A stretch of 64,000 bases of DNA, from positions 83,271 to 147,270 of the forward strand of contig CAYZAK010000001.1 in assembly GCA_964476445.1 (NCBI GenBank), given 5' to 3'. The stretch comes from an uncultured bacterium (GTDB taxonomy: Bacteria > CG03 > SLGR01 > JAGXOG01). A program made the position numbers and the translations under genes. The notes below the pieces were generated by a model. The model worked only from the letters and a program-made list of their open reading frames with translations, did not search any database and was not told the origin of the DNA. Shown here piece after piece: positions 1 through 54,573 of this stretch (positions are counted from its first letter, which is position 1; every line of letters starts with the position of its first letter).

Positions 1-1639
1 CTCCCCATCTGTCTCCCCGCCAGTATTCCCAATTACCGGCACCATCGTCTTTTCTTAACTGTATTGCTACCTCACTTACTCTGGATCCGTAATTTGGATC
101 CCTGAAAGAACCCGTAAAAGTAGCAATCATTATATTATACGATTCTCCCCTGACCGGATAAACCATATCACTGTAAGGCGGAGTTATATCGTACCTGAAC
201 TCGGAATTGTAATTTTGGCTATTTAAAATATCGGTTTCCTCAACCTGCTCTTTATTAGGCTCCGATTTTACATCATCATAAGCCCTGACCCATATATTAT
301 TTACCAGTCCATCTCTCAAATTCACCCCGGTATAGGTCCAGGAAGAAGGATGCAATTCAGCTTCCACCCAGTTAATATCTTCCGTGGTCCATCCCTGTTC
401 TGTCCAGTAGTCCTCCTCATCCATCTGTATAACAAGTTCAACTTTGCTTACATCGGAATACTCATCAACTGCTGTTCCGTAAATAGTGAAAGTATGAGTG
501 GAGTCGTTTATCTGTTCGAATTCTCCCTCCATGGGGTACTCTACAAAAGATTCCGGAGTAGTGATATCGTAGATAAATGAAATACCGTTTTTTTCAGCGG
601 TGCTTTCCTGATTGCCGGCCAGGTCGGTCATTTTGGAAGTTACCCAATATTCCGAGCCGGCCGCTCCCCAATCTACATTGGAAGAATTCCAGCTCCAGGA
701 AGTAGTTCCTTCAACCAGGATCCAGTTTTCCTCTGCCAAGTCAAAATCAGTGGTTTCTGTATTATAATAATATTCACCGTTAAATATGGAAATACCCACA
801 AAATCCACTCCCTGGTCGTCGTAAGCAGACCCCTGGATTAAATCCATCTCATTGTAGTTCTGGCCTCCTCCTTCAGGATAGGTTACCGCCGAAACTCCCA
901 CTTGGGTATCGTAAACTATTCTATTCTTCAGAGGAGATTCAATATTTTGAGCTTCATCGTGAGCCCGGGTATATATCCAGTGTTCCTCCCCGTCATTCCA
1001 CTCGGCGGCGGTGGCGTCCCAAACCCATTGTTCGCTGGGAGAATCAAACGCTTCTCCTAACGGAGCCGCGGGATTCCAGATATAAGTTTCGCTTTCCTCC
1101 CAATTACCCTCACCGCTATGATTCCAGAAATAAGTAGTTCCTTCATCAATATATTTTAATGCTATATCAACTTCGGTTATGGCTGAAATTTCTCCCGCAT
1201 CCACCGCGGTACCTTCTATGGTGGGCTTCTCGTTTACATATTCCCCGTCCGGACTGCTTATTCCGGTCTCCGGGGGGGCATTATCCACCCAGAAATCAAT
1301 AGAACTTTCCACTGTCTCGGTAGAACCCAGAGAATCAAAAGACCTGGTCCACAGACGGTATCTTGCCGCCTGGGATTCTTCTTCCAGTCTCCACAGAGCA
1401 GGTACCCCGCCGGTCCACTCTTCGGTTCCATCCCGGGGACGCCAGTTTTCTTCGGCCACCCAGGAGCCTCCCCCTTCCCAGTATAGATCTTCATAGGCTT
1501 CGTCACCCTCCATATACCGGAGTTTTATTTGAGCTCCGGTAACTTCGGCCGGAGAGTATGCCAAAGCGGTTCCCGAAATATCGGTTAAAGGTTGAGTATG
1601 TAAACCAACATAGGGCATAGTTGATGCGGACACCGGTCG
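1..1639 (-). repeat. Trp-rich Ig-like repeat block 4 (4 full units + 1 partial)
   Basis: Units begin RPVSAST, DNAPPET, DTQVGVS, DITTPES, DITPPYS; same consensus as the other Trp-rich blocks. Confidence 0.8.
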
Positions 1640-4600
1640 GGTAGCCACAGTTATTCCGTCCTGCCAACCGTAGATATCCGGATCGTTTATATCGTATACC
1701 TGGACATCATGTTCTCCCGGAGTCATCATCTTAACTTCAAATTCTGATTCTCCTTCGTCTTCAAGTACAAAATTATACGGTTCCGGACTTACCTGTATAT
1801 CGGAAGTGGGAGCGTTAAAAGATACCGTGGAGGTATAATTCTCAAAAATATTACCGAACTGATCAACGGCCTGGACCAGGACCCCGGAAGTTTCATAATC
1901 AACCCTCTGGGGATCGGCTATCCCGGATAGGGATAAGCTGTCTAAAGAGGCGGGTTCAACAGATATCGGATATTGATGACCTTCAATAGTTTCATCATAA
2001 GGATCGCTCTGAAAAGCTCGCAGAGAAAAATTATCGCCGGATTCTCGGAATTCAACGGTAAAAAGGTTCAGGCCCCTCTCGGTGGAAGTGGAGTAAGTAA
2101 ACGTTCCCGGAGCCACGGTCCAATCAGTGTTGTCAGAAGTAAATGTTACGGTATTAGAATAATTGATATCCCGGTTGCCGTATTCATCCCGGGCTATCAC
2201 GTAAAAAGCGTCTTCCTCACCCGCTGCCAGCGTGGCTTGAATACCGGTGACCCTGAACTGACTGGTTTCCGCGGGGTTGACTTTTATACCCGGCTGACGG
2301 CCGTCTATTTCCGGCGAGGGATGATCAATATGCCTGACTTCCACGTACCACGGATCGTTAATATATCCTTCCGTGGTCCAGGAAGACCTGTTAAGGGTTA
2401 CCCCATCCGTAAATGTCCGTTCTCCTTCCACCAGATTCTGACCGGCAGTGGGCAGGGAATAGTAACCTACCGGATTATTGGTGAAAAACTGAACCGGGTC
2501 GGAGCTGCCGGTATCCAGATTGCCGAATTCATCGACGGCTCTTACCGTAATATCATAATCCGCACCGGCATCTATATCCGTGGACATTGAAACTTCGTAA
2601 TTCACCCGCTCGCCGGCAATTACTTCAATCTGGTCTTCTCCCATCCAGGGAGTGTAGTCTGTATCCTTTATCCTCACCACCCGATTTTCGGCGGCGGTAA
2701 TCAGTCGCACGGTGGTGGTATCATAGTCTGCTTCAAAGACGTGCAGTCCGTTATCGGCCAGGGTTCCGGTGGAGAAAGTATAATCAGCGGGAAGGATAAC
2801 TCCCTCATGCTCGTCGTCGGTATCGAAAGTAACTGTTCCTGTATAGTCGGTCTTTCTGTTGTTAAACTCATCCCTGGCCTCCACAACTATGCCCGTGGAA
2901 GTTCCCGCCCGATAGGGGTCGGGCAGGCCGGTAAGAACAAAATTATCTATCCCCGCCGGATCAACAGCTATGGTCATATCGCCATACCATTCGCCGGGGT
3001 TGGCCGTATCCCTGGCCCTGACTGTCCAACCTTCTTCGGCGGTAGTCCTTAAAACCATCTCCTCGGTAAATGTCCGATCGCCGTTATCTTCTCCTTCACC
3101 GGTTGTGAAAGTGTGGGTGGAAGGCAAAGTAGCCTGGGTATCTTCATCGCTGATAAAGGCGAACTCAACAGTCCCTTCATAGTCAAGAACCAGGTTGCCC
3201 CACTCGCCCCACTGACCGTCGTAAATTCTTACCCGGGGGCTTAACTCATCTCCGGCGGTCTCTGTCTGGGAACCTTCATAAAGATCAAGACGAACCTTCT
3301 CTATAGAAGCGTTTTCAACTGTAACAGTATTTGAATCCGAAGCAGGACCTTCCGGATCCACGGCGCTGACAGTCACCTGCCAGTCCCCCGATTTTTTCAG
3401 GTTTAATCCGGCCGGAAACTCAGCCAGTCCTTCATCATTAAGGGTAAAAGTATAATTATCTGGTAATTTTGCTTCCTCCGAATCCTCGGTGGTATAAAAG
3501 GTTATTTCTCCGGTATAACCCAGGGCCACGGTCCCGTCTTCGTTTAGGGCTCTTACCTGGATATCCATATCATCGCCGGCTACGGTGAACTGTCCGTCAA
3601 GATCCGTCCCATCTATTAATTCAAGAGAAAGATGGGTAACCGGTTTTACATACCTGAACCGACTTGAAGAAGGATCTGATTCCTGTAATCCCACATTATC
3701 CACCGCCCGGGCATATACATTGTAGTACCGGTCATCCTCCCACTGAATAGTTGAAGTGTCCAACTCAAAAAATTCTCCGCTTTGAGTGGTCGGATTATAT
3801 GTCTGTACTTCTGTCCAGGTAGAACCGGAGGCATCCCACCAGTAGTAAGGGCTAAAATCCTGTCTTATGGCCATATCCACGGTATCCAGGCCGGACAAAT
3901 CATCCGCTCCCGTGCTTCTTACAACATCCATCGATTCGTACATCGCTCCGTCCACCGGAGTATTAAGATAGGAATAGGGTTCGCTGTCATCGTAGATAAA
4001 AGTGACCGACGGCGTAGAAATCTGAACGTTGCCCGCCTCATCTTTAACGTAAGTTTTTACCTCATACGCCCCGGCGTCAGCCCAGGCTCCCGAAAGGGTG
4101 GTATAGGTCCAGGAAGAGGTGAACATCTGAGTTTCTACCCGAACCTCAGCGGTGGTCCAGGAACTTCCGGTCCAATTATAAGATCCCGAAGAGATTTGAA
4201 GTTTTACAAAATCGACCCCGGAGTATCCGTCATGCATTTCTCCTCTTATTTCTTCCGGTTCACCGCTGGTGTAGTACTCCCCTTCATCCGGATAGTTTAT
4301 AGTACTTGTCGGGGGAACCACATCATAGTGATATACGGACTTTATTTCCCAGGGTTCGATGTTCCCGGCATTGTCCCTGGCCCGGGAGTATATATAGTAA
4401 GTTTCCTCGTTATTTTCATAAAAAATTCCTATATCAGTTTCAGAGATACCGTATTCCCAGCTTCCCGCTCCATAATCCGCGTACATGGATATATCACCGC
4501 CCCAGACTTCTCCGTCCCAGTAATTTCCGTCGGAACTTCTTTGGATTTTTATTCTGACATCGCTTACTCCGCTGTTGGGGGAAGGATAATCCTCCGCTGC

Positions 4601-7600
4601 ACCGGTTAGAGGTTCCACCATATCATTATGACTGGCTTCATTTTTGGGATAATCTACCCAAGCCGTGGGAGTGGATTCGTCGTATCTGAAAGACAGCAGC
4701 GATCCCTGGTTGGCTTCTATATGCTGGGATACATCAGAATCGTACACTTCTTTGTTACCGGCCTCGTCCTTCACTCTCATCCACACCTGGTGCATCCGGC
4801 CGTTCTCCCAGTCTATCTGGGGCAGATTCCAGTTTTCATAATTATCCGCTGTCTGGCCGTCTATCCATTTCATATCTTCAAAATCTGTGCTCCAAGCTGT
4901 TCCGTCCCACCAGGCGCCCGGATCCCGTCGTAGAGCAACCTGAACCAGTTCCACTTCGTTTGTATCATAGGCCGTTCCCTCGATACCTTCAAATGACCAG
5001 TTCACCGCATCACCATCGTATACGGAAGTAACGGTGGCTGTCGGGGCCAGGGTATCGTAAATAAATATAACTTCAGTTAAATCCCCGGCATCTTCTACGT
5101 TTCCGGCCGTATCCTCGGCCCGGGAGGTAAGTTGATACTGGGTATTTTCATCAAAAGGTTCTCCGGGAATACTAAAATTCCAGCTCACTGCCGAATCACC
5201 CCAGTTTCCGGACGCTCCTTCAAGCCACTCTTCCCCGCCCCATCCGCTGCCGGTCCAGTACTGACCGTCCTTCTCTATTCTAACATCAATCTTATCCACT
5301 CCGAATTCGTTAAAAGCCGTACCAGAAATTACCTCGAGTTCGTTTCTTACCTCTCCCTCAGCGGGTACGTCAATATCCGACACCGGAGTATCTGTATCGT
5401 AAGTAACCGCTATCTCGTAAACCGGTTCTTCCACATTAGCTGCGTCATCTACCGACCGGGTACGGATTTTGTGTTCTTTCTGGTTCTGCCAGGCTACGTT
5501 CTCGGCGTTAAAATACCAGTCCACTACCGGAGAAATTCCGAACCCATCGCCGGTGGCTTCTGTGGTATCGTTCCAGTAAGAAGCTGTTGTTGTGGACTGG
5601 ATACTCTGGTTCCAGTAATATGTGGTTCCTTCATCTATATAACTTATCTGTATCTGGACATTAGTTATATTTGAAAATTCTCCCGGGTCTTTTGCCGTTC
5701 CTTCTATTAAATCTATGGAAGAATAATTTTCTCCGTGGCTGTGGGAGGTAATTTCCGATTCGGGCAGACCCCGGTCGGTGTAAAACCGGTAAGGGCCTCT
5801 GACCGTTTCGGTTCCCTTAAGCGAATCATAGGCCCGAAAGTAAAACCTGTAAATCGCATTGCCGTCTACATCCAGGTTATCCCAGGAAGGTAAATCTTCG
5901 CTGTAGAATACCTGTTCCTGACTGTTGTAATCCAGTTCTCTCCATCTTTCGGCTCCCCAGGAAATTCCTCCCCTCCAGTACTGACCTTCTCTGTCTCCTC
6001 CCGATTCACAGTAAAGACGCATCTCCACTTTAGTTACTTCAGCATAATCTTCGTGGTGGGGCACCGCTGTTCCCGAGGTCGAATCCAGGGACCAGGAACG
6101 GTAGCCGTCGTAAGGCATATCCACCGAAGTATCCGGGGGTAAAAGTACTCTGACATTTACCGATTCCCCGGTTTTTGTAGCATCATTATCATCGGTTACC
6201 GTAATCTTCCAACCTTCAGCGGTGTTAGAAGAGTTAAATACCGCTCCGCCGGGCCAGGTCTTTACCCCGTCGTCATCTTCAGTGTAATTGGAAGGTCCGG
6301 GTAAATCAGCAAGAATATCTTCAGAAGCAAAAGTTACAGTTGATACATAATTTTCTACTACATTGTCAAACTCATCCTGGGCTTCCACGGTTATATCCAC
6401 CGGTCGGTTTATACTCACGGCATTATCTTCTGAAAGTCCGCCCAATTTTACCCCGAATTGTTCCAATTCTCCGGCATCAACTGTTATTCCGGTCCGGGTA
6501 CCGGAAGAAAGTCCGCCGGCATAGGCCCACAGCTCCTGGTTCACTCCCGCGGAGCGGTATATCGCGGTATAGTTTTCACTGCCCTCGGTAAGGGTAAGCT
6601 CCACAGGTACAGCAAATCCATCCACCGTGGCCGTATCATCCGTTCCGCCGGTATGGAAGGTAACTTCTCCGGACCAGTCATATACAATATTGTTAAACTC
6701 GTCCCTGACTGATACTCCGGCGGTGTTCGGACTTCCGGCATCCACCTGTCCCGGATAATCTACGGTCAATTTTTCAGCAACAGCAGCCTCTACCATTATT
6801 CCTTCCTGAGATCCAAGGTTATTGTTGCCGTCTTCTACAGTTACTTCAAATCTTTGGGTTAACGGGTCGCTGGCCTCTTTAAGGGTAACCCAGTTGGTGA
6901 ATTCCTGGTAACCGTCAGATATTTCTCCGGGTCCCAGAGATTCAAAATTCTCGTTATCGCTGTCAAATACCACTGTTCCGGTATAATCTGTCTGCAAGTT
7001 ACCGAATTCATCCACCGCTTCTACAGTTATATTCTGAACCACTCCTGCAGTTATTTGAGTGGTCATACTAACTTCAAAAGCTTCCACTGCGGACGGCTCC
7101 ACAGTCACCGTCCGGGTTCCCATCCACACTCCAAAGGCCGTCTCTTCCACTCTCACGTATCGACTTCCCGAAGTAATCAGCCGCACGGTATCCGTCACCG
7201 TTAATCCTTCAAAATTATGGACTCCCGAATCTTCCGGTTCAAAGGTGTAATCATCCGGAAAATTGACTTCTTCATGGACATCATCTGTATCAAAAGATAT
7301 GGTTCCCTGGTAATCGGTTTTGGTGTTCTCAAATTCGTCCCTGGCTTCTACCGTTATCCCCGATTCAGCTCCGGCTTCAAAAGGATCGGGCAGACCGGTT
7401 AAGATAAAATGATCTATCCCAGCCGGATTTACAATAACGTACTGATCATTTTCTATACTTGTACCCACTATCCGGGCATTAACCTGCCAGCCGGTATCCT
7501 GGTTCTTTTCTTTTAACTCCAGCTGATCGGTGAACTCATGTTCTCCGCCTTCTATACCATCGAAATTATAATTTCCGGGCATGTCTGTCTCATAGGGATA

Positions 7601-22600: not shown

Positions 22601-25600
22601 CGCATCACTGAAATAAGCTCCCTTAATATCCACCTCCACCCCTTGGCTGCCCTGGCCTCTTGTGGTGGGACTTATAGAATCAACCCTCGGGCCGAGATTA
22701 ACTGAAAAAACATCTTCGCCAACGCCTACTCCGAAATCAGGATTAACAATAGTAACATCTCTGGCAACCGGAGATGCGTTTCCGTCAATATCCACCGTTA
22801 CCCTGAGTTCCTGATCGCTTTCAACGATAACATTCTTTACAGAAATGCCGCTTCCAAAATCAATATCCTCTTCTCCTATGCTTTGAAGGAAATATTCCCC
22901 TGTTAATACAATCTCCACATCTTCGGATCCCTGCCCGTAATTATCAGGCGATGCCGATGTTATTGCAGGTTTCGGTGTGATGGTCAAAAATTCGGGGTCA
23001 CTCTGAGTGGAGGTTCCCTCGTCGGGATTTGTAACCGTAACAGATGCCGCACCAAGCGCGGCATCGGGTGACACATTTACTGTCACATCAATACGGGATG
23101 AACTTATAAAATCTACATCAGTTACAGCCACATCACCGTCATCTTCATTTATAATTATATCTGCTCCTTCCTGAAAATTTTCCCCTCCAAGTTCCAGCGT
23201 TACGCTCTGGGCTCCCTGCCCGAGTTCGTAAGATTCGGCCGGCCAGGAGGCTCCCGTATTACAGGTCTCAAGCAGAGGAGGTTTATTAATAGTAAGCAGG
23301 GGATCTTCGGTAACATATTCCCCTCCGTCGGGGTTTAGCAACCGCAGATACCTGTCCGGATTTCCCCCGGGACTCCAGTCGGCTTCAGGCGAAACCGTAA
23401 TCTCTATATCCAGAGTCCTGCTGTCTGTATAAGTAATGGTAGTTACTGTTATACCCGGGTCTTCCGGGGACCCGGCGCTGTAAGTTGAAAAATATACTTC
23501 ACAACCCTCCTGGTAAGAACCCCACTCGGGCGCACGTATTCTTATTTCCCTGTCTGTTGCTCCTCTTGCCACATTATCAGGGGATATCCATTCAATTTCA
23601 GGATTTCTCCTTATTTCAATACCGTCTTCAAGAATATCCCATCCGAAATCGGGGTTTTCTATTCTCACGTCATACGTATCCACATCCAGTTCTTCTCCTA
23701 CATCAAGAAGAACAGTAAAAGATGAAGATCCATAATCATAATTGTAGCTGTGAAAATTATACTGACCCGAAGGAGGCCCCACAAGAGTCAGCACAGCTCC
23801 TTCTTTAAAACCGGGAGCCTGCACCACCATTTCTCTGTCATCGGCGCCACGGCCTATAAAATCGGGATCAAATTCCTGAAGTACGGGATGGGGATTAATC
23901 ATAACTCCGTCTGTAATAACGTAGTTACCCTGGTCGGGATTTACGATTATCAGATCGCTGTATCCGGTGCTCATATATTCATCAACGGTTATATCGCATT
24001 GAATTTTTGCCGGGTCTACGGAAACATTGGACAGAGGAATCCATTCTTCGCCAAAATATATTCTTAATCCCGAAACAAAATTATCACCCGTAATCTCAAC
24101 CGCCTGGCCGGAGGTCTGGGCGCGCTGGCCGAATTCAAACGGGACCGGCGAAACAATACTTATATTATCCGGCCGGGCACCTATTACAAAATATCCCGGA
24201 TCGTCTCTTGAGGCTGTTCCTCCGCTTACGGGATTTCTAACTGTAACCTCCCTGTCACCCACCGGGCAATCGTGATAAACATTTACAAGTACGTCAATCC
24301 TGCTGGAAGACCTCCAGTTAACAGTTTCAACCTCTATATGCGGCACGTCAAAAAAGACATCACTGGCGCTTATCCCGGTCTCAAAACCCGAGCCCCTTAT
24401 CCTCAGTGTTATCTCCCGGGCATTCTGCCCCAGCTGATTACTGGGGTTTGAACCCTCTACTGTCAGTTCATCGGGAGTAAGATAGGGAGGCTCAACTATA
24501 CTCAGCACGCTCACGCCCGAGATAAATATCCCTCCATCGGGATTCTCCGCTACAATCCACCTGTCTCCGAGATCCGCTTCGGCATCCACATTGAAATTCA
24601 CAAATTCCATCACATTCTGACTGAAACTGGTAAGCTCGCCGACATCTATTTTATCGTCAACAGGATACCCTGTCGAACTTTTTGAAAACCATATATCGAT
24701 TCCCTCCTGAAAGTACGGGCCGTCTCCCACAACCACCAGAGTTGACCCCGTCACACCCTGCGCCCTAACTTCAGGCGTAATGTAGTTTATATCCGGAGAG
24801 TGGGTGACATTGAAAAAATTGTTCCTGGTTACATAACCTCCATCCGGATTGGTTACGGTTACGTCTCTTAAACCCGTGGAAGTATACTCATCAATATTTA
24901 AAAGAACTGTTAAAGTTTCAGGATTGTAATCTACAATTTCCACCGATATACCGGAACCGAAATCTATTTCGCACCCGTCCTGAAAATTACTGCCATGCAG
25001 TGTAACTTGATAATCTTCAGCTCCCTGACCGGCTTCCGCTGGATCAAGGGATTCTAATCCGGGGGCACCAACCACATCAATCGCATCTGGAAGGGGATCG
25101 CTCTCCCCCAGGTCCTGGTTTATAATTTTAAGATCTTTGGGGCCCAGTGGACAGCCGTCATGTATTCTTACGGTAGCGTAAAGTTTGGTTCCCTCCTCCT
25201 CCACAACGGCATCTACCAGTTCAATCTCGTCATCCTCAACTCCAAAATCTAGCTGAATACGGCTCTCCACAAAATTCTGTCCTTCAATCTCCAGTGTAGT
25301 TTCCGAATAAACTCCTAGCTGAAGCGGCGTGGGCCACTCTGGGTGCACAATCTGGTTAATCACCGGTCTCGGGTTTACCGTCATCGAACCGAACCAGACG
25401 TAATAACCCCCGTTATTAATATTTCTTACATGTATATCACGGGGGCCGGCAGGACAGTCGCCGGCTACATCAATAAGGGCTTCAATGCGGGTGGCGTAGG
25501 TTTCAACACCCTTTACTTCAATATCCGCCTCTTCGTCGAACCAGACCTCCACGTTTCCGGACTCAAATCCCGATCCCGTTATTCTCAGGGTTTCATCAGT

Positions 25601-27313
25601 GGCTCCCTGGCCTATTTCATCACGGGGCCTGGACCCCATGATATTGATCTCATTAAGTGTGAGCCGGGGCGCCACTTCAAAACCTATTGGTGGAGATATA
25701 TCCTGTCTTGTATTTGTCTTTCCTCCATCCGGATGCCTGAGTTCAAGCTCCCAGTTGTCGGAAACCGGAGAAGCGGTAGATAGCACCGTAACATACAGCT
25801 CAAGAGTGTTTGCGCTTATACGGTTTTTATCCCTTATAATAACCCCGCCGTGCGGATCCGGGTGCTTAAGTTCGGCAATTACATCTTCTCCAATATAAGC
25901 TCCGTTTACTGTTATGGTAGACCACTGTTGAGAATCGAGAGGAACTCCTTGAGCCCGGCTTTTAGGATTAAAATCATATATCTGTGGGCGCCTGGTAATT
26001 GTAAACTCAGGACTGCGGCCGGGGGAGGAAATACCTCCGTCCGGATTTACCACCCTTACTCTTTCCGTTCCAATACCGGAATTTCGGGTTATCTCAACTG
26101 TTGCGGTTATGGTTCCCGGAGCGAGGTCGTAATTATAGTCATAAGCGAGCACACCTCCGTGTTCAAAATCAAGCGTCGCACCCGGCTGAAACCCGTGACC
26201 GTATACGCTGTAAGTGAAAGTCGAGGCGTTTTGACCGTAAGGCCCCTCGGTGCTTGCCTCGTATACCTGGGGAAGAAATCTGACGGGAACCTCCTGGGAA
26301 GCTCCTGCTCCGTCTATATTGACGCTTATATTTACCGTCCCTGTGATATTCGGGGCCTCAAAAAGAGTCCAGGAATTTTGCCAGACAGACGGCTCTGTTG
26401 ACGGTATATTGTAGTCATCCCAACCCTCAAACCTTATTTCACTCGAAGCGTTTCGGTCTCTAAACATTCCCCCCCGGATCTGGAGCATTATCGGTTCATC
26501 CGGAGTGCTTCCCAGAGTCTCGGTTATTTCTTCTTCGGCGGCATCAAGCACGCTGTATATGTAAGGCCTGAATGTCAGATTATCACTCCAGTTAAGGTAA
26601 GAGTTATTATCTCCCCCGGTATTGTTGTAATAAAAAGCCACTGCACCGCCGTCGCCGGCACTGACTATCTCGTTTTCCACTTCCAGGACCAGCCGGTCTC
26701 CATGATCAATCTCCAGATTTGGATGGGTCTCGGACTCACCGTCAATTATATTGGCCTGCCATCTGTTATATGAACCCTCGCCGCCTGTCTCAGTTTCCGA
26801 CATCGGGCTTTCTCTTATTATCCATTCATTTTTCCGGCTTCCATCGCCCCGCGGCTCAAAATATTCAGTAGAAAGCCAGTTCCTCCTCCATAAATAAATG
26901 TATGCGTTTGCCCTGTGCTGGGGCATTGCATCCTGGTCGTCGTCACTTCCGGCTATTCCAAAACATCCTCGGAAGGTCCAATTCGTTGCATTATATATGG
27001 TCTGTGCGCCATCCAGAGGCGGGGAGACAAAAACACCCATATTATAGTAATCCCCATCAGCTCCCACACTAAATCTATGCTCCTGCTCTTCACTTCCCTG
27101 CCCTATGGTCATAGGATAGGCTTCGCCACTTGCATATTCACGGTCATAATATATACGTCCCCGCGGACTGTTTGGCCTGGGGCCTCTTTCAAAACCGTAA
27201 ACCCCTCCGCTTCGGGGATAAATCGTGTCCGTCTCTATGCCGTCAGCGAAAACCGAGCCGGCGGACAAAATAAGCACAAATATTATGTTTAACAGCGTTT
27301 TATACATCTTCAT
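1..27313 (-). CDS. Giant secreted/surface repeat protein, at least 9,104 aa, 3'-partial (continues beyond position 1)
   Basis: ATG at 27313-27311 overlaps the TGA of the upstream gene (ATGA). N-terminus MKMYKTLLNIIFVLILSAGSVFA-DGIE is a Sec signal peptide. Hand translation stayed open down to position 2 (ends ...GAGNWEYWRGDRWG). Frame checks at 26564, 13508, 8099, 3644 and 1640 agree. The ORF track lists no fragment of this frame, as expected if it has no stop inside the window. Confidence 0.95.
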   Translation of the reverse strand, partial: MKMYKTLLNIIFVLILSAGSVFADGIETDTIYPRSGGVYGFERGPRPNSPRGRIYYDREYASGEAYPMTIGQGSEEQEHRFSVGADGDYYNMGVFVSPPLDGAQTIYNATNWTFRGCFGIAGSDDDQDAMPQHRANAYIYLWRRNWLSTEYFEPRGDGSRKNEWIIRESPMSETETGGEGSYNRWQANIIDGESETHPNLEIDHGDRLVLEVENEIVSAGDGGAVAFYYNNTGGDNNSYLNWSDNLTFRPYIYSVLDAAEEEITETLGSTPDEPIMLQIRGGMFRDRNASSEIRFEGWDDYNIPSTEPSVWQNSWTLFEAPNITGTVNISVNIDGAGASQEVPVRFLPQVYEASTEGPYGQNASTFTYSVYGHGFQPGATLDFEHGGVLAYDYNYDLAPGTITATVEITRNSGIGTERVRVVNPDGGISSPGRSPEFTITRRPQIYDFNPKSRAQGVPLDSQQWSTITVNGAYIGEDVIAELKHPDPHGGVIIRDKNRISANTLELYVTVLSTASPVSDNWELELRHPDGGKTNTRQDISPPIGFEVAPRLTLNEINIMGSRPRDEIGQGATDETLRITGSGFESGNVEVWFDEEADIEVKGVETYATRIEALIDVAGDCPAGPRDIHVRNINNGGYYVWFGSMTVNPRPVINQIVHPEWPTPLQLGVYSETTLEIEGQNFVESRIQLDFGVEDDEIELVDAVVEEEGTKLYATVRIHDGCPLGPKDLKIINQDLGESDPLPDAIDVVGAPGLESLDPAEAGQGAEDYQVTLHGSNFQDGCEIDFGSGISVEIVDYNPETLTVLLNIDEYTSTGLRDVTVTNPDGGYVTRNNFFNVTHSPDINYITPEVRAQGVTGSTLVVVGDGPYFQEGIDIWFSKSSTGYPVDDKIDVGELTSFSQNVMEFVNFNVDAEADLGDRWIVAENPDGGIFISGVSVLSIVEPPYLTPDELTVEGSNPSNQLGQNAREITLRIRGSGFETGISASDVFFDVPHIEVETVNWRSSSRIDVLVNVYHDCPVGDREVTVRNPVSGGTASRDDPGYFVIGARPDNISIVSPVPFEFGQRAQTSGQAVEITGDNFVSGLRIYFGEEWIPLSNVSVDPAKIQCDITVDEYMSTGYSDLIIVNPDQGNYVITDGVMINPHPVLQEFDPDFIGRGADDREMVVQAPGFKEGAVLTLVGPPSGQYNFHSYNYDYGSSSFTVLLDVGEELDVDTYDVRIENPDFGWDILEDGIEIRRNPEIEWISPDNVARGATDREIRIRAPEWGSYQEGCEVYFSTYSAGSPEDPGITVTTITYTDSRTLDIEITVSPEADWSPGGNPDRYLRLLNPDGGEYVTEDPLLTINKPPLLETCNTGASWPAESYELGQGAQSVTLELGGENFQEGADIIINEDDGDVAVTDVDFISSSRIDVTVNVSPDAALGAASVTVTNPDEGTSTQSDPEFLTITPKPAITSASPDNYGQGSEDVEIVLTGEYFLQSIGEEDIDFGSGISVKNVIVESDQELRVTVDIDGNASPVARDVTIVNPDFGVGVGEDVFSVNLGPRVDSISPTTRGQGSQGVEVDIKGAYFSDALTHDDVWFSGTRIDVTDVPFVAVDGSSMTVVIDIAHNASTDTARDVTVRNPDMGMDTIEGAFTVGLKPEIYECDPDALGAGALDQIIEVTGEGFQSGLEAYFSLSSLGDTEDNQISIGDISGDGDVITFSNVDVDPEAEIGPRYLVVINPDGGRAVSDEPVFEVTLAPVIQAISPNRLGQNASNITLNISGLNFQEGIGYGNVTFEPSSGITKHEVNRISEDSIQVRVSINAEADPGFRNVRVENPDQGADVDEDGFQITPRPRFHYASPDAAGQGAQNRIIEIHGTGFQTGMEALFGGDGISPNPAGASGSSTEMSVTISISTDATAPSERSIRLEDPDYGYSIVFDTFTINRAPSVTQLSPSSLGQGAQQREIIVQGSNFQDGITPEDISFSHGGDGIEVTNVEYQSPSEITLTVNVPHGCTAQTGDITIVNPDGGIKTETGIFTVNPAPDVTEIVPSQLSQDMYDEEINIYGSGFDVPGNISREVSFGTTTIETISVSYISDSQLRAYINILSTAGAQDYDITVVNRDGGVTTVTNGFTVSDKPYISHLNHPERGRGALEQDMRIYGGAFQEGSTVTISGEGLTLSTTTRIGSGELQVTLSITYGADLGPRDVTVVNPDGGTYILEDGFTVGDSPATAIGAPWKSRHNDTLTHSTGTVTTDAEKVYLSLKRLSDERWFRAGSGFVSTSEEWIEAAYTTGEEVWEYSMPLGELQHGTSYYIRTYGHGTNAGREQPGSGVTFIYDTEAPEVSITRPVHLAHYNDGSGEIDNRLNQIFGTAEEGTEKIELRIRDQDSELFWDGSDWVSQDQFFDVNAIDPSNWSYSISTANWIDGHSYNVRVRATDIAGNISTPGTGRTFRMDFQVPVTEVLNPEDEGIYNELTVISGSVNDEPGIGEVTMVQIYIQRQSDDFYYDGTEWQNSIEWIDVTSFDQEEWHYNVVEGTFDDGYYEIKVRAQDRAMNLECSDDGTSKPESVFFTWDETPPVTSVVFPEEDDIISDPDMVVEGTWSDPHGIDRIEICIENTDTGRWWTGGSWTDHSEQWVSSEDFANFEIYDGTWSYSGIPWLSGEHRIRTRGSDIVGNIEEPGPARGFMFDATAPDVNIVSIPEDGGWYNDVLTHFQGETADDEHGTGVDSVSLKIQDLSRGTTFWTGTSWVNDPSEDTWAEVSPPLGIWEYPVPPLEHGHVYSVTPRAEDVAGNVSYGSTNMFYYDIESPSSFITTPDDGQYGVISMVEGYSFDSPQDMDGHGVVEIYIYNETDEEYYTGSGNQWDSQMQWLEASWGSWMSAYSFRRWHYELPELSHGKEYTVVSRATDDAGNVEETHPEITFTYNENIPYSLITLPRDGTIIDGNISLVRGEVLNLSEESLSGVDVSIVRGEISGSEKVYYRWDWAEEEWVEVSGTVSYYHWAGADYPAGDRHYFEVDVSGINFDEQEAVYRIYSRARTQSYSESAGRGTAFEIETGFPLTWPDSPVHGDYLSEIEEITGLGAGNIPAQVQVSVQKVAVPEELDVYDENQEDEYWRWTHDEWQSTVYWLDADLSGIEGDWNWSLDVSESGPEGEIDWIHGYYYRIRSRARDINETHTGGTLIMVDRVDPVSEILYPSPGTFKDILTISGTAMDKDSGIAQNGIEVQIRYEDGGTIYYWDEDAGEFSSTTDNRWHSGVCDSAVGGSTVTWTFDASNLNNEFQHGIEYQLLSRATDRAGNVEDPPVEGPQIICDREGPDSVITSPPTGRIINFFTESYDISGTANDALSQVEQVEIQVKRGANYLQDDYSWDAEDNWLQTEYELGEWNISLTTDCWVNDHSSTITVRAIDNLGNIGPAQSSIWFIFDDEPPESEVLKPDGLHNYNDSDHDITDMIYGTVTDNQQVRDVYVRIQRGALDQYWNAEIEDWEEDEDSWNRAQVWSSSWTFTDIPSWVDNWEYRVWSYAVDTATNTESIPGNTYSFIYDSIPPESSVTVPDEDSFWSSSPQLQGASYDGGAGVYDVRALLKYTEGGQSFYWDSVGWAETETPQWISVEEPLSEWHVDPGDLPDEADFTPGRIYRAVSRARDERGPASPRYLNVENYEENWNEFIWDPAPPESEAVYPLNDGLIAEDAFIEGTAHDETGAMEDIPGEMVKTGKVEAVYVRLKKIDGGSEYWWDNTSSPSVWTTDPVWAETQLSPDATSWVLSDSPQWETLEDDYEANIRALDAAGNWETDFSTVSFAADFIPPETEITVPIHGNDYDTLDVIRGTAEDNYENIPTRGMNYVELMIVRDSDGYTWNGDSWSSGGNDWIETDVVSEGPLHWEWEYDLPGVIWESGEYYTVISRGVDKALNIETEEETGKNQNTFRFVAPAETFKISMDLSDSDTTDVQAGEELTIQVEAYNITEEITAMGYRGTVYFNLGGPAGVAGVVPSSYTFTAEDDGIKTFSGEVSTETTRFFSANTGPYPTADGDIYLEVYDDDTYAEPISTRAYVNVYPSALSRFTFQENWANTRAGESRTLTIEARDDFGDMEGGYGNIKHDYLGVVRFASNDPLISRGDGLPEDYEFQESDYGVVTFTEGFIFRRANIGEGNETEKWHVSARDQTVPGSESFYENLVVEPDMLDSFLVVTDTGPQIAGYEGQAASITVSAVDEFLNLLSSGTYEYTGEVEFTSSDTQAELPASPYSFTGEDNAHVEFETSVILKTAGEHWIRVRDEEREREGLQEGIEILPAPASYFRLSVSTDATAGEYNDIVIEALDPYGNRDVNFESLDDNDEGIKLSGTGGFMTNVSHDIVDFYAANNGISTYTAVVAFTEAGTGREITATNIVDQEPVGISETIDGIRVFNAEPDHFTVDRISPEPPIAAGTTMETFRVWIRDEFGNRCQNPPYLGTVEFASSDEQAVFNPETFEYTEEHGGRREFPDLFTLKTLGDQDIYINSMEGPDVIGSTIAITVVPAEHDGFRVETSTIQTSGERYSTRVESIDEYGNIVTDYTGSVRFDSDASDFDFIPFEYDFQEEDQGIREFRSIDGEGIRFSTRGVYYLRVYDFESPAKDGIKEDVFVTDRPVSTVTFPEDGDYINELTPPAIEGTHWDDEEVVEVKVKIQRVSNMFFWNEDAGEWQENEFLNEAEVHESSWTYAGEGINWISGNDYRIMSRARDNRGNYEIDYSTITFLFDSTPPETSFTHPEDGGHRNEPFLVSGTAMDYPAGFDSGLAQLRLQITHQRPGDPATYYWDTPDWVTTESTLYPPAGEEWVYDTMPNWQEGYLYHIYAWHSDHAGNVEDIKSVSFIYDETPPESTISKPDSDYESDKTLEKIWGTAEDLPAEPYYSAGVDRVQVRISSGTGTEIFWDGSSWQHMDPGQAWQEAEWWGSSWTYTSLEGAFEDGITYNVNARAIDRTTSDGITGPNVEVDFSTRTFIYDTIAPETVMERPEDNNTYEMMPEIYGTASDTPPGEVDYVEIRIRQTAGGDFTGMMWDWQEDEWSSSPQQEWSDGITPDGESWSISTSGVSWQATAEGVQYETEFRATDRAGNVEETKSHTWYYSSPFPTTVINTPSGTELNPNYYRSPSQISGEADEYTYENETYVLISSGPTYGTYWDNDSGQWSDTEVWNQVDTPTGEAPYSWYLSVDQSVWIDGTMYNIRSKGVGPAGEESPGSGRYFIIDQTDPTASVQEPAAGAHHQSVSRISGIAEDPSGEAWGYELGKIGEVHITIQDTEDNYYQQGGDWGAGEHWIPVQPIDGTFDSLSEEWYWDVDYPTAVWEDDGQYFIRSRARDHVQPSPNTGSSGLSELIIDTIPPTSGITEPYEEYYNALPQIMGTGADTPPGEWYDIDIMIRRTPGTTRYWDGGGWSISKETLSDEDDEDLIIYSSSWTYSDISWASGYEYRITVRGKDRSGNIETSTQTAEFVYDNRPPVTGGDQPSDGGYYNELLEITGTAQDDSSGQELVSGIEDVEVAYRKSEGTTGYWTQEDWTGQSSEGNWWTAFYSAGNWTEEVENPFADEDSPPDDGQYQVIIRALDKAGNWQTEFSTVTFTWDLTPPGFSDVSPSTSATINSMDVGLTLDEKMQVGPTRVVFEAQSGWNEEVEGSTYTAILNEAQGEDLEFQTIPWDQFDGELIDGNRYTLRLEGQDLAGNFDDGSWYFSDMIYDTTRPQSKFTYPYKYDHSTMSIISGTAEDPPPTAGSFFAGVEGTEVRIFRDYGEGSQESWDGESWDSGSHWLSAEGTESWQYEVTVTTAFEHNREYRVETRAYDSAANTQTVPTAHLFMMDTVPPEGLIEFPEPDEYYNTMTDISGTAADDLSGISVDGVKLRIRKSDSPIYYWSGTDWVLDEVWVEASFSVEDWSFESGPGASALGEYDDGTPFEVLAMISDDAGNTYTAPAVTFYNDTAFPSAEITNIESGQYYNPNTLVDIEGEASGEPSGIYSVEVVVEAEDEYWNPATESWQGDEIIWIPAESTTADTYETWKVGGINWLDGIPHHIWMRVTDKAENRTVYDTESDSTIENIQDYYVRFTYDETPPDSLVDFPENNKYYNIQYGTVTGQAFDPLPGSGVSRVRILLQRASDDQWWRGTYWGGERTMTVDFFDPDWEFYISPEARSVFYENPEEEYFIYTYAEDYAGNIEDLTAKTTFYYDVVPPTSTVELPETETEEEYYTAGDEVDTLIHGGQYDGYSGIDKVEVKISSGNNYWTGSVWTEEEQYSAINAQLHTSSWTYTDVPVWEDDVLYEITSRALDVAGNVGETPVTKRFQYDISEPESFVEMPVDGQGYEMMDEITGTALDATSGVDEVEVAIRENFGDLRHWDTQTGDWVSGTVFSTMVFSGGKWRFDSSGVPWQDDSDYRIRLRATDNVGITETNITNESQSVFTYYKPAVDFEFVRPDGTELDGEVTAGSTVPFKLTALNEDGNPAKWYQGTVEFSVAHEEYDTAPTSYTFTTADEGSRIFEGNVSSTALNFVYRDASSWVRAEDSDDEDLFKVQNIDVKWAPAQKIQLTGVPAYQVAGEIQSPVVEIFDGQWGDWGNPVEDFDGEVTFESENYPYETDMPGNYNFDGIEGGEHEFTDQLELKEKNQDTGWQVNARIVGTSIENDQYVIVNPAGIDHFILTGLPDPFEAGAESGITVEARDEFENTKTDYQGTISFDTDDVHEEVNFPDDYTFEPEDSGVHNFEGLTVTDTVRLITSGSRYVRVEETAFGVWMGTRTVTVEPSAVEAFEVSMTTQITAGVVQNITVEAVDEFGNLQTDYTGTVVFDSDNENFESLGPGEISDGYQEFTNWVTLKEASDPLTQRFEVTVEDGNNNLGSQEGIMVEAAVAEKLTVDYPGQVDAGSPNTAGVSVRDEFNNIVYDWSGEVTFHTGGTDDTATVDGFAVPVELTLTEGSENYTAIYRSAGVNQELWAYAGGLSSGTRTGITVDAGELEQFGVKLGGLSEDNAVSINRPVDITVEAQDEFDNVVENYVSTVTFASEDILADLPGPSNYTEDDDGVKTWPGGAVFNSSNTAEGWKITVTDDNDATKTGESVNVRVLLPPDTSVDMPYDGYRSWSLDSTSGTAVPHHEDYAEVTKVEMRLYCESGGDREGQYWRGGISWGAERWRELDYNSQEQVFYSEDLPSWDNLDVDGNAIYRFYFRAYDSLKGTETVRGPYRFYTDRGLPESEITSHSHGENYSSIDLIEGTAKDPGEFSNITNVQIQISYIDEGTTYYWNQSIQSTTTASYWNDTTEATGDGFGISPVVDWYFNAENVAWQNQKEHKIRTRSVDDAANVEEPVYEIAVTYDTDTPVSDIDVPAEGEVRNELEVISGTAFNEFGVDKIDVRIEKDGQYWTGSGWGGEEWLEGASGNWGDSAVSWNFSIPGEPFDENTQYQLTSRAEDTAGNVEDAGDLTEVIFIYDTLAPTATVTSVYDGDAVNWSFEGIEGTAYDTNEVELVQVALRRDPGAWWDGTAWSTDFEDMKWIDGQTADNYENWNLPQIDWENGRMHQVWMRVKDEAGNKEVYDSDVSQHIEANQGSLLSFRYDESTPTAWVDYPKNEASHNDMVEPLTGAAEDYPSPNSGVSDVRIKIQRSSDGNYWDGEVWGGDISMYADYGAGSWEYGISETDIGIFYENNEETYYIYSRARDNAGNIEPWEIKSVYHYDVVPPTSTINYPDEGEYYTSGEPEEIRGEMHDGYSGVDFVKLQISSGSYNWTGSSWTTAEVRVETQMFTSSWTYTTLSGAWADAGAYEVKTYVKDEAGNVQISTPSVTFIYDDSEPYSYLNTPVDGAMYESMDVVRSTGADDLSGLDTVDMAIRQDFSPYYWWDASGSTWTEVQTYNPTTQSGEFFELDTSTIQWEDDRYYNVYARAVDNVGLQESDPSSSRFRYVKPVTHLSLELIDGTDLDGQFTVAGDDMDIQVRALNEDGTVALGYTGEITFYTTEDSEEAKLPDNYTFTLNDEGLAEFPAGLNLKKSGDWQVTVSAVDPEGPASDSNTVTVENASIEKVRLDLYEGSQTETAGDELSPRVRIYDGQWGEWGNLVLDYEGTVEFAFISDEDTQATLPSTHTFTTGEGEDNGDRTFTEEMVLRTTAEEGWTVRARDTANPGEWYGDMTIAVDPAGIDNFVLTGLPDPYRAGTSTGIVVEARDEFNNRKTDYTGTVTFDTDDEHEGVILPADYTFSTGTLADNGLHVFEADYDTTTVRLITAAENRVVRIKDTDYTPWMGEDQIEVIAGERVNYEVSMSTDIDAGADYDITVRAVDEFGNLDTGSSDPVQFFTNNPVGYYSLPTAGQNLVEGERTFTDGVTLNRSSWTTEGYINDPWYVEVRHIDHPSPEIDGRQPGIKVNPAETSQFRVTGIQATLAAGEEDAFYVIARDEYGNRDINYSNTVTFTSDNTDWTVAPGTFTYSTSTERGLNLFTVEFRESGDNFSLRAFQSDPYDETIEGHQYPISVEPASLDSLSLSGIADPQRVDYETSGVLVQAVDQFGNIFENYTSTVSFNAPTSDIQVSPEPYNFVLEDEGESEFEVKMMTPGEHDVQVYDINDPDIYGWQDGITVATRPVSASTMPYVGLHTQPLTDISGTALAYSPAEVTGAQIKLRYMEGDEAYEDLYWEGGGSWVAEENWRPRDGTEEWTGGVPALWRLEEESQAARYRLWTRSFDSLGSTETVESSIDFWVDNAPPETGISSPDGEYVNEKPTIEGTAVDAGEISAITEVDIALKYIDEGTTYFWNHSGEGNWEESETYIWNPAAPLGEAFDSPSEQWVWDATAAEWNDGEEHWIYTRAHDEAQNIESPLKNRIVYDTQVGVSAVTYPEGGGQNYNEMDLIQGSAYDDQGVDFVGISIFNGEYYYNTETTDFDLAEENWILVEGTTSWSWNSSNVDWGAAGSEYWVTSKMTDLAGNQESTAEKNGISFIYDITTPESFVEYPMEGEFEQINDSTHTFTIYGTAVDEYSDVSKVELVIQMDEEDYWTEQGWTTEDINWVEAELHPSSWTYTGVNLRDGLVNNIWVRAYDDVKSEPNKEQVEETDILNSQNYNSEFRYDITPPYSDMVYPVRGESYNIMIATFTGSFRDPNYGSRVSEVAIQLRKDDGAGNWEYWRGDRWG
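1640..3646 (-). repeat. Type-B Ig-like repeat block 3 (6 units)
   Basis: Six ~100-115 aa units, e.g. AGIDNFVLTGLPDPYRAG..VEARDEFNNRKTDYTGTVTFDTDD..LPADYTF. Confidence 0.8.
3647..6146 (-). repeat. Trp-rich Ig-like repeat block 3 (7 units)
   Basis: Units begin PPDTSV, DRGLPES, DTDTPVS, DTLAPTA, DESTPTA, DVVPPTS, DDSEPYS. Confidence 0.8.
6147..8101 (-). repeat. Type-B Ig-like repeat block 2 (6 units)
   Basis: Six units with A-x-D-x-F/Y-G/x-N...Y-x-G-T-V-x-F motif. Confidence 0.8.
8102..13510 (-). repeat. Trp-rich Ig-like repeat block 2 (15 units, one Trp-poor variant at ~10262-10597)
   Basis: Units begin DRPVST, DSTPPET, DETPPES, DTIAPET, SSPFPTT, DQTDPTA, DTIPPTS, DNRPPVT, DLTPPGF, DTTRPQS, DTVPPEG, DTAFPSA, DETPPDS, DVVPPTS, DISEPES. 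Confidence 0.8.
13511..15592 (-). repeat. Type-B Ig-like repeat block 1 (6 units)
   Basis: Consensus AG..v.v.A.D.FGN....Y.G.V.F.S.D...LP..Y.F...D.G...F, e.g. VESIDEYGNIVTDYTGSVRFDSD..FEYDFQEEDQGIREF. Confidence 0.8.
15593..20692 (-). repeat. Trp-rich Ig-like repeat block 1 (14 units)
   Basis: ~115-130 aa units: DxxPPxSxIxxP...IxGTAxD..SGVxxVEVxI...YWxGxxW...W...WxY...WxxGxxYxIxSRAxDxAGNxE...FxY. Confidence 0.8.
20693..26569 (-). repeat. 20 tandem IPT/TIG-like repeats
   Basis: ~90-105 aa units with P-x-I-x-x-x-x-P..GQGA..v.I.GxxF.xG..v.F....R.V.V.NPDGG, e.g. APSVTQLSPSSLGQGAQQREIIVQGSNFQDG...ITIVNPDGG. The first unit is more divergent. Confidence 0.8.
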
Positions 27314-28890
27314 AATGCTATGACCACATATTTTCTTATGAAGTATAAAATCACGCCGTAATAAAGTATGCTTATATAAGAAACATAAGCAGCTTTATGC
27401 TCAAACCTGTAGACTATAAATGCCGCCGTCAGGCCCAACACTCCGGCGGCAATATACAGCATACTCAAACCCGTCAGTAACGGAACAACCATAAAAGCGC
27501 TAAAAATAACCGGGGGAACAATATGCCTGCTTAGCTTTTTTCTGTACCTTAAAATTCCTGCAAGTGTAAAACCTAAAAGAGCCGCTTGCCACAGAGGGCC
27601 GGGCAAAAGGTGGACCGCTTCCCTGTCTGCAAGCAATCCATATCCGGTAAAGAAAGAAAACATGTATGTAAGAGCAATAAACAGATCAGAAATTATAGGT
27701 ATCCGTTCTATCTTAAGAGGCGGAAGCATTATAAAATAAAAAAGAAGAATAAATACGATAAGATAAAGCAGGCACCAGTAAGTGGTGTTGATAGCAGCAA
27801 ATATTGCCATAAAAAGGAAAATTGACGCTATCAGCTTCTGCTCTCCGAAAGAGGCCCATTTTAAAGACCGGTCAGATCTTTTATTAATAATCCCTTTTAC
27901 CGTGCAGATATGTAAATAGGCAAAAAAGACAGCCAGGGCAAGCATTACGGAAGCAAAGTAATCTATCGGATTCTGAAAGGCGTGGGGCAGCACATTTTCC
28001 ATTCTCCAGATTCCCATAACAATCCCGGCAACCGTGAGTGCTGCATAATTTAAACCTTTTGACCAATTAATATTTTTAATCCAAACGCTAAAATTTTTCT
28101 TTCCAGCATATATTCTAAACCATATTAATAGAAAAATCGTTATCATAACCATAAGCAAAATTCCGGTTATCTGGGTATTGGTGTGTACTAAACCGGGTGT
28201 TCCCATAAGCTTATCGCCAAGCGAAGCCCCAATTAATTCCTCAGGAACATATCTGCTAAATATGGGAAATATTCTGTATATAGGCCCAACAGTAACAACG
28301 TGAAGGAAACCTAGTAGTACAACAAAACTGAACTGACTCATTATCCAGCCTGATACCGCTTTTAAAATACTTTGGGTTTTTATATATATGTAAGTTGCCA
28401 CACCGATACAAAGAAAGAGAGCCTCTAACCGTTGTCCGATTGAGTGCCTTTCAAATTGGTAGAAAGGGTTAAAAATGTTTATGAGTGCTGGGAGTATTTC
28501 CGAAAATTCGGTTCCGTACTGTAAGGGATATCCTCCAACGGTAACATAATCCCATAAGGGGACAATCCAGCTCACAATCCAGAAAACAATAACTATTTTG
28601 GATATTTTGAGGATATTTTCCTTTGTGAGAAGATATATTATGCAGCAGACTATCAGATACATTTCAATGTGAGCAAGTGCGTATGCGTTAAATATCTTCA
28701 ATATGGAAAAAAACTGAGGATAAGACGGATGGGTTTCGTGTCCTATTGTGTGGGTCCAGGCAAGCCCGTCACCAAAATTTCTCATCAGAATTACTACGGC
28801 AAAGAAAAGCAGCCACCAGGCGGTACCCGCCGGGTTATTTTCAACGGGTTCAATAATTTTTTCCTTTATGCAGTTAATCATTATCTCCAA
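27310..28890 (-). CDS. Multi-pass membrane protein: unknown N-terminal membrane domain plus catalytically degenerate UbiA-like C-terminal domain
   Basis: Many hydrophobic segments. The C-terminal ~260 aa align by eye to the 288-aa UbiA two genes upstream but lack both Asp-rich motifs. Confidence 0.8.
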   Translation of the reverse strand: MEIMINCIKEKIIEPVENNPAGTAWWLLFFAVVILMRNFGDGLAWTHTIGHETHPSYPQFFSILKIFNAYALAHIEMYLIVCCIIYLLTKENILKISKIVIVFWIVSWIVPLWDYVTVGGYPLQYGTEFSEILPALINIFNPFYQFERHSIGQRLEALFLCIGVATYIYIKTQSILKAVSGWIMSQFSFVVLLGFLHVVTVGPIYRIFPIFSRYVPEELIGASLGDKLMGTPGLVHTNTQITGILLMVMITIFLLIWFRIYAGKKNFSVWIKNINWSKGLNYAALTVAGIVMGIWRMENVLPHAFQNPIDYFASVMLALAVFFAYLHICTVKGIINKRSDRSLKWASFGEQKLIASIFLFMAIFAAINTTYWCLLYLIVFILLFYFIMLPPLKIERIPIISDLFIALTYMFSFFTGYGLLADREAVHLLPGPLWQAALLGFTLAGILRYRKKLSRHIVPPVIFSAFMVVPLLTGLSMLYIAAGVLGLTAAFIVYRFEHKAAYVSYISILYYGVILYFIRKYVVIAL

Positions 28891-32050: not shown

Positions 32051-32076
32051 TCTATACATCTATACACATCTATACA
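32051..32076. repeat. Three copies of TCTATACA in the 5' leader of the 168-aa gene
   Basis: Copies at 32051, 32059 and 32069. Confidence 0.7.
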
Positions 32077-32077
32077 T

Positions 32078-32111: not shown

Positions 32112-32127
32112 CTTTATGCTAACCTTG

Positions 32128-53583: not shown

Positions 53584-53586
53584 CTT

Positions 53587-54555: not shown

Positions 54556-54573
54556 TAAGCCACAAAAAGTACT

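Follow-up and report, generated by a model that had tools for sequence, protein, structure and literature searches.

A gene for a giant, probably Sec-exported protein of immunoglobulin-like repeats, a probable adhesin fibre, in a cluster with a cyclic di-GMP riboswitch leader from an uncultured Elusimicrobiota-related bacterium

What does a bacterium encode in 27 kb of DNA for which a list of open reading frames (ORFs) offers no product longer than 275 amino acids (aa)? The question is raised by the left part of a stretch of 64,000 nucleotides (nt), here called the window, of contig CAYZAK010000001.1 (assembly GCA_964476445.1, positions 83,271 to 147,270). Coordinates given for the window are window positions, and the features listed with them lie on the minus strand. 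Translation, together with collinear orthologues, identifies in this part (2..27313) the N-terminal 9,104 codons of a giant gene that runs off the left edge of the window. In the reading that we favour, and consider probable, this DNA holds the 5' half of a bona fide gene whose product is a giant, Sec-exported, cyclic di-GMP (c-di-GMP)-controlled adhesin or matrix-tether fibre of sub-micrometre length, made by an Elusimicrobiota-related diderm bacterium.

A preliminary description, made by inspection of the sequence, had claimed an uninterrupted minus-strand frame from the ATG at 27313 to the window edge. Translation of the reverse complement of positions 2-27313 yielded 9,104 codons and not a single stop. 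Given the local base composition, about one codon in 18 should be a stop, and the probability that such a frame stays open by chance is ~1e-223. The ATG overlaps the stop codon of the upstream gene (ATGA), the protein begins MKMYKTLLNIIFVLILSAGSVFA|DG, and its N-terminal sequence, translated from ATG 27313, is MKMYKTLLNIIFVLILSAGSVFADG. The visible part has a mass of ~1.01 MDa, is strongly acidic (isoelectric point 4.05, 1,655 Asp+Glu versus 492 Lys+Arg, net charge near -1,160) and is almost free of Cys (17 residues). The ORF list for positions 1-27313 contains only short off-frame and mostly antisense ORFs, as had been noticed, because frames that extend beyond the window are not included in it. 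The designation of the gene as unannotated was an artefact of this listing, and the expectation that a naive annotation would call the 27 kb empty was mistaken, since on the public ENA contig ERZ27266011 k141_386779 the gene has been called as a partial product of 6,864 aa, which stops at the contig end. Over the compared length of 20,978 nt, of which 8,433 nt belong to the gene, this independent contig does not differ from the window in a single base. The longest direct DNA repeats do not exceed 48 nt and are at most 81% identical, and the repeat units are 25-30% identical at the protein level; the repeat-induced misassembly that had been considered as a possible refutation did not materialise. 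The GC content at third codon positions is 0.465, within the range of the neighbouring genes (0.31-0.50), and the GC excess in positions 1 and 2 reflects the amino-acid composition. Horizontal transfer, which the higher GC content had suggested, was rejected on these grounds. The frame is real and the assembly is sound.

After a leader and one orphan domain of ~230 aa, the visible polypeptide consists solely of tandem immunoglobulin (Ig)-like beta-sandwich modules. The leader is a Sec-type signal peptide (aa 1-23, 27245..27313), as had been claimed, with a positively charged n-region, a hydrophobic core at aa 3-26 that is the sole hydrophobic segment of the visible protein, and the cleavage motif VFA|DG; relatives also begin with a hydrophobic leader. 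The orphan domain (aa 24-255, 26549..27244), proposed here as a distal binding head, matched nothing in Pfam or NCBIfam even at E<=1 and nothing in the PDB. The rest was tiled with hidden Markov models (HMMs) of single units that were refined by iteration on the giant protein itself (self-HMMs). An array of 20 IPT/TIG units (aa 256-2205, 20699..26548) comes first, recognised by Pfam and by a self-HMM that found 19 units and one diverged first unit. It is followed by two unit types in alternating blocks, a W-rich Ig-like type designated bigW and an invasin/MG-like Ig type designated Big1-like: 14 bigW units (aa 2209-3893, 15635..20689), 6 Big1-like units (aa 3894-4603, 13505..15634), 14 bigW units and one aberrant unit at aa 5565-5689 (aa 4604-6391, 8141..13504), 6 Big1-like units (aa 6392-7059, 6137..8140), 7 bigW units (aa 7060-7879, 3677..6136), 6 Big1-like units (aa 7880-8559, 1637..3676) and 5 bigW units, the last of which is incomplete at the window edge (aa 8560-9104, 2..1636). 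Each of these blocks is based on self-HMMs. The totals of 20 IPT/TIG, 41 bigW (one aberrant, one truncated at the edge) and 18 Big1-like units, six in each of three blocks, agree exactly with the ~79 beta-sandwich-like units counted in the preliminary description. Superimposed on this order is a super-repeat of ~1,490 aa (aa 6008-7490 versus 7495-9000, 30-45% identical) formed by the 7-bigW block and its flanking blocks. Since the tiling is almost gap-free, a catalytic domain of the visible part could be accommodated only in the orphan N-terminal domain.

The bigW unit comprises ~115 aa with conserved Trp residues and the motif RAxDxAGN, the Big1-like unit ~110 aa with the pattern AG..I.VEA.DEFGN..Y.GTV.F. 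Pfam matches on the visible protein were confined to TIG, Qn_am_d_aIII, Big_13, Big_3_x and Big_7; within aa 1-4571, TIG (PF01833) scored 74 bits (cut-off 20.9) and Qn_am_d_aIII 76.8 bits. When single units were compared with Pfam, even a sub-threshold match to an Ig domain was obtained with just 6 of 38 bigW and 1 of 18 Big1-like units, and the family Big_1 matched none of the 18. About 59 of the 79 modules thus appear, as judged by profile comparison, to lie outside current Pfam families, and the two types are offered as candidate new Ig-like domain families. AlphaFold2, with the internal repeats of the protein as alignment input, modelled both units as confident beta-sandwiches (pLDDT 90.0 for bigW, 96.5 for Big1-like). 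Foldseek searches with these models returned weak, generic Ig-like matches with TM scores of ~0.5-0.65 (sulfite-oxidase E-set, FN3, LigA, InvE, MG and SbsC), among which those to LigA and InvE were weak fold matches of the Big1-like unit. The bigW profile matches weakly the bacterial Ig-like (BIg) extender domains of MpAFP RII (4p99, 4.8e-5) and SiiE (2yn3, 1.2e-3). The visible 9,104 aa contain no GGxGxD motif, no catalytic Pfam family and no transmembrane segment beyond the signal peptide; the earlier statement that no catalytic motif is recognisable in the visible part holds, as Pfam yields Ig/TIG families only.

How far does the gene extend beyond the window? A Logan contig, SRR21542050_31664, carries in this order genes for a TPR protein, a membrane protein and a giant product of 17,658 aa that is complete within the contig (predicted end of the gene at nt ~56,085); the window protein and the first 3,331 aa of this product are collinear and 52% identical. 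A second orthologue emerged when JGI metagenomes were scanned for the pattern of the two most similar Big1-like units. It resides on the soda-lake sediment contig SL_5KL_010_SEDDRAFT_10000012 (IMG 3300000477, 84.6 kb) and specifies 18,919 aa, likewise complete within the contig (predicted end at nt ~10,424). This product is collinear with aa 3050-9104 of the window protein at 55.6% identity and continues with another 976 aa of bigW units beyond the window edge; in all, the gene was independently assembled at least four times, in this contig and, in part, in at least three other assemblies. Because the window gene is collinear with complete orthologues of 17,658 and 18,919 aa, it probably comprises ~18,000-20,000 codons, less than half of which are visible; that a large part of the protein lies beyond the window had been anticipated. 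The individual units are 40-67% identical to their positional counterparts in the orthologues and 25-30% identical to their neighbours in the array, which shows that the array is old and has been selected for length and order. A full HMMER scan of 1.84 billion representatives with the orphan N-terminal domain resulted in no more than five true hits, two of which are named Elusimicrobia. In all five the domain is located right behind the leader and is followed by TIG arrays, and all are N-terminal fragments truncated by contig ends. The last 500 aa of the visible protein found no match in scans of genome and metagenome contigs, look-ups by exact match of the partial products of 6,864 aa and 9,104 aa returned nothing, and homology searches of a word index, started from aa 1-600 or from the alignment of 38 bigW units, gave no match, the index apparently containing no giant products.

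Two family members were observed in a truncated state. A 5,180-aa fragment (P0004, locus L010, GCA_024206195.1 JAAGZO010000498.1) contains near-identical multi-unit TIG super-repeats indicative of recent amplification, in contrast to the anciently diverged units of the window gene. In locus L014 (7629-9668, GCA_002782565.1 PFIB01000195.1) the 1,082-aa protein P0007 is cut by scaffold N-gaps, and its frame is open for at least 2,658 codons, up to the contig end.

The giant gene is the last member of a co-directional cluster in which start and stop codons overlap. Overlaps of 1-4 nt link the genes for a 228-aa HEAT-repeat protein (30718..31404), a membrane-bound UbiA-family prenyltransferase (29855..30721), a 325-aa TPR protein (28881..29858), a polytopic membrane protein of 523 aa (27310..28881) and the giant protein itself, the stop codon of the membrane protein gene overlapping the ATG of the giant gene. 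Upstream of this run lie orf168, which encodes an exported protein of 168 aa with unassigned function and the C-terminus EPRFRVPVFLE (31536..32042), and a gene for an exported HEAT-repeat protein of 310 aa (32348..33280) that forms the conserved upstream border of the cluster; both have homologues in the soda-lake locus. The TPR protein and the two HEAT proteins carry an N-terminal signal or anchor and are therefore predicted to act outside the cytoplasm. The 523-aa membrane protein is an orphan that matched nothing in Pfam, NCBIfam or the PDB and has three relatives among 5.8 billion proteins, all of them encoded directly upstream of a giant-gene N-terminus. The relative on the Logan contig is 67% identical, and in an Elusimicrobia MAG (metagenome-assembled genome) fragment the relative's gene overlaps the start of the giant-gene N-terminus. 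No similarity was detected to the 1,100-aa spermine-synthase-like membrane protein of L014. Partners of the TPR and HEAT types are also encoded in the loci L008, L013 and L014: orthologues of the TPR gene lie upstream of giant genes in L008 and L014, in the latter with 28% identity over the full length, and a HEAT protein with 40% identity precedes the family member in L013. In the soda-lake locus the counterpart of the 310-aa HEAT protein is 56% identical, the orf168 homologue is 34% identical and has the same EPRFRxPVFLE end, and the stop codon of a HEAT gene behind it overlaps the start of the giant gene, so that riboswitch, orf, HEAT gene and giant gene form one compact run. The combination of UbiA, TPR and membrane protein evoked the idea of glycosylation, which remains speculation as neither D[ST][AILVMT] motifs nor NxS/T sequons were enriched relative to shuffled sequences.

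The leader of the cluster (32075..32211) contains a c-di-GMP-I riboswitch aptamer (32132-32211) identified with the covariance model RF01051 at 45.4 bits (gathering threshold 35, model positions 1-87). It is followed at its 3' side by a terminator-like element, a hairpin with a run of seven U, and orf168 begins 90 nt downstream. The soda-lake leader (L019, 2147-2290) scores 45.7 bits, shows paired substitutions in the stems and ends in the same terminator-like hairpin. It is plausible that the riboswitch controls the giant gene. Genes for adhesins and pili are controlled by c-di-GMP riboswitches in Clostridioides difficile and Vibrio. As in those systems, a GEMM-type aptamer is situated here in the leader of putative surface-attachment genes; it differs in heading a multi-gene cluster that ends in a gene of ~55-60 kb in a diderm lineage of candidate-phylum level. 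Large Vibrio adhesins are under c-di-GMP control (PMC6890996).

From these data the following model is proposed. The protein would be exported by Sec and, once outside the cytoplasm, would fold into a semi-rigid rod. If each module contributes ~4-5 nm, the visible part would extend over 0.3-0.4 µm and the full protein perhaps over 0.7-0.9 µm, and Ca2+ may stiffen the rod, by analogy with BIg extender arrays. The C-terminus, beyond the window, would hold the rod at the cell envelope, leaving the N-terminal orphan domain free to bind ligands as a distal head. Assistance in export, folding or anchoring might come from the orphan membrane protein and from the exported HEAT and TPR proteins. Binding of c-di-GMP to the leader would decide whether transcription reads through into the cluster, and fibre production would thereby be coupled to the sessile or attached state. 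The preliminary description had left a choice between adhesin, spacer and prey-contact structure for its filamentous surface protein. The conserved c-di-GMP riboswitch leader favours the adhesin over the other options, and for prey contact no support was obtained.

Several points weigh against the proposed adhesin fibre. The soda-lake orthologue begins with its own domain of ~200 aa, which bears at most a faint motif-level resemblance to that of the window protein, and continues with one TIG unit instead of the array of 20; the head is therefore not conserved across the family. Taken together with the collinear modules, this pattern suggests a head that evolves modularly on a conserved stalk. 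The sole hint of a head function is a non-significant match of the orphan domain to CBM66 (E=0.07). Between orf168 and the HEAT-to-giant run there is a gap of 131 nt with a promoter-like site (31492-31463), by which the riboswitch may control only orf168, and in the more distant relative L013 the HEAT-giant pair is present and no riboswitch was detected. The C-terminus, where an anchor, an outer-membrane route or a catalytic or toxin cargo would show, lies outside all family sequences examined. That the fibre adheres, that it binds Ca2+ and that its N-terminal domain serves as a head are predictions from the genes.

The alternative that survives best, although it appears distinctly less likely than a tip-binding fibre, is a matrix or envelope scaffold, released or loosely associated with the cell as a mesh, sheath or S-layer-like coat, in which the modules would be spacers and no specific binding head would exist. 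It would accommodate the conservation of the stalk and not of the head in the soda-lake orthologue, and the Big1-like unit indeed matches weakly the S-layer protein SbsC by sequence and fold. Matrix proteins are also under c-di-GMP control, and S-layer-like and PEGA proteins are encoded nearby. A lattice former, however, would hardly be expected to have such an extreme length or a domain order conserved position by position, and the orphan domain retained at the extreme N-terminus of five relatives is what one would expect of a functional tip. The nearby genes (42695-45692) are those for a protein of 866 aa that carries a Glucodextran_C (SLH-like) module and, following it, for a PEGA-domain protein; both may be S-layer or envelope components.

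An improbable alternative is a contact-dependent weapon or a device for attachment to host or prey, with enzymatic or toxin domains in the C-terminal half, as has been proposed for the giant proteins of Omnitrophota. The part beyond the window, which amounts to more than half of the protein, could house such domains, and giant genes of Omnitrophota, Elusimicrobia and CG03 have been implicated in predation or cell-wall degradation (West-Roberts et al., 2023 preprint, 10.1101/2023.11.21.568195; PMC12057145). The window gene resembles these genes in its broad lineage, in a size of >10,000 aa and in the fragmentation in metagenome assemblies, and Elusimicrobia are listed as rich in giant genes (PMC12057145; PMC11573180). 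The Omnitrophota giants, however, contain many transmembrane helices and catalytic or carbohydrate-active domains and have been interpreted as predatory weapons, whereas the visible half of the window gene encodes neither. Ig-like modules are the only content of the 9,104 visible aa and of 9,248 aa of the soda-lake orthologue, which reach 976 aa past the window edge, and the conserved cluster contains no toxin, immunity or hydrolase gene. That the frame is a mere artefact, a repeat-induced chimera or a decaying pseudogene that stays open by chance, might be suspected of a repeat-built gene of metagenomic source with several relatives fragmented in assemblies, but it is effectively refuted by the shortness and divergence of the DNA repeats, the identical second assembly, the unremarkable third-position GC content and an open frame with collinear units in two orthologues at 52-56% identity.

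Does the adhesin fibre belong to a known class? It has much in common with the giant RTX adhesins of type I secretion systems (T1SS), such as MpIBP/MpAFP of Marinomonas primoryensis, SiiE of Salmonella and LapA of Pseudomonas, which are acidic rods of megadalton size with tens to >100 tandem BIg-type modules, a binding region at one end and control by c-di-GMP (LapA via LapD/LapG). A long tandem BIg extender region, typical of RTX adhesins, has its equivalent in the 59 non-TIG Ig-like units of the window protein. The differences are that the window protein has a cleavable Sec signal instead of an N-terminal retention module, that its modules are highly diverged whereas those of the RTX adhesins are near-identical, that the c-di-GMP input would be a riboswitch and not a LapD-type receptor, and that the predicted size is 3-10 times that of SiiE or LapA. 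Among the genes at 27310-64000, the 37 kb upstream of the giant gene, none encodes an ABC transporter, membrane fusion protein or TolC of a T1SS. The Sec leader, the absence of RTX motifs from the visible part and the absence of T1SS genes from these 37 kb speak against membership of the RTX/T1SS class. Inverse autotransporters (intimin/invasin, InvE) and LigA/LigB share with it a signal peptide followed by Big-type Ig arrays, but the window protein is >10 times larger and has no match to the inverse autotransporter beta-barrel (PF11924) or to the Pfam families Big_1 and Big_2. As no relation of its N-terminal 230-aa domain to an outer-membrane barrel was detected, it is not an inverse autotransporter.

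The giant proteins of Bacteroidota that are sorted by the type IX secretion system (T9SS) also combine an N-terminal signal peptide with long Ig/FN3/PKD arrays. An example is the 4,615-aa protein of locus L017 (4112-19357, Ga0209697_10000097), composed of Ig, FN3, EF-hand and PKD domains, which ends in a Por_Secre_tail and is followed by a PorV gene. This is the arrangement that the preliminary description had envisaged for the window gene, seen here in a different protein of another lineage. The L017 protein shares one Big1-like unit with the window protein (38% identity), but it is unrelated and Bacteroidota-like. It is not an orthologue and so provides no evidence on the C-terminus of the window gene. 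Two traits of T9SS cargo, a Sec signal and a PorV-type partner in the genome, are found here as well, but the PorV-like gene of the window is 26 kb away and adjoins another cargo. It encodes a PorV/PorQ-family protein (53587-54555, 116.6 bits, cut-off 90), and directly downstream of it (51235-53583) lies the gene of an FG-GAP protein whose C-terminus resembles FlgD_ig/Por_Secre_tail. Such an arrangement hints that an Elusimicrobia-like genome possesses a sorting pair of the T9SS-like kind. The pair is situated among type-IV-pilin-like genes with N_methyl and PilX_N motifs (50738-56209).

A more far-reaching interpretation, which we regard as doubtful, concerns the c-di-GMP-I riboswitch, the exported orf168 product and the exported HEAT proteins, joined in the sub-lineage of the window by UbiA, the TPR protein and the membrane protein. 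This conserved cassette might constitute a previously undescribed system dedicated to the biogenesis and anchoring of Sec-dependent ~2 MDa fibres in Elusimicrobiota, distinct from T1SS, T9SS and type V secretion systems (T5SS), and c-di-GMP would switch fibre production directly, by acting on the RNA.

The features of interest are the size class, the two Ig-like unit types most of which fail in Pfam, and the riboswitch-led accessory cluster with its orphan membrane protein. If the full gene has 18,000-20,000 codons, its product ranks with the largest proteins recorded from bacteria. Ig-repeat adhesins of giant size have been described before, as have giant genes of Elusimicrobia, so that no new principle emerges; the locus offers instead a clean case, with a sound assembly, a defined regulatory leader and ~80 modules that are positionally orthologous between genomes. 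With it, a giant surface fibre of an uncultured diderm lineage would join the targets of c-di-GMP riboswitches. How Sec substrates of such size are handled is a question common to all Sec-dependent giant proteins, and the orphan membrane protein with the exported HEAT and TPR partners are candidates for this function.

The host is best read, from its genes, as an Elusimicrobiota-related diderm bacterium. Mfd is 52-53% identical to its counterparts in two Elusimicrobia MAGs, the closest GTDB species. The neighbourhood of Mfd in these MAGs contains neither the giant gene nor the riboswitch. Between 27,310 and 64,000 all ORFs of >180 aa are on the minus strand; they include those for Mfd, UvrD, MetRS, GlnRS, GltX, HisG, HolB and Tmk. 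At the position that corresponds to the soda-lake loci L020/L021 the window has no chemotaxis cluster; in the soda-lake loci (1-9913) such a cluster, with genes for a methyl-accepting chemotaxis protein (MCP), CheA, CheB, two CheY, CheR, a ParA-like protein and CheW, lies immediately upstream of the HEAT-riboswitch-giant cluster. In the window the genes for glutaminyl-tRNA and glutamyl-tRNA synthetase are located side by side (56761-60213).

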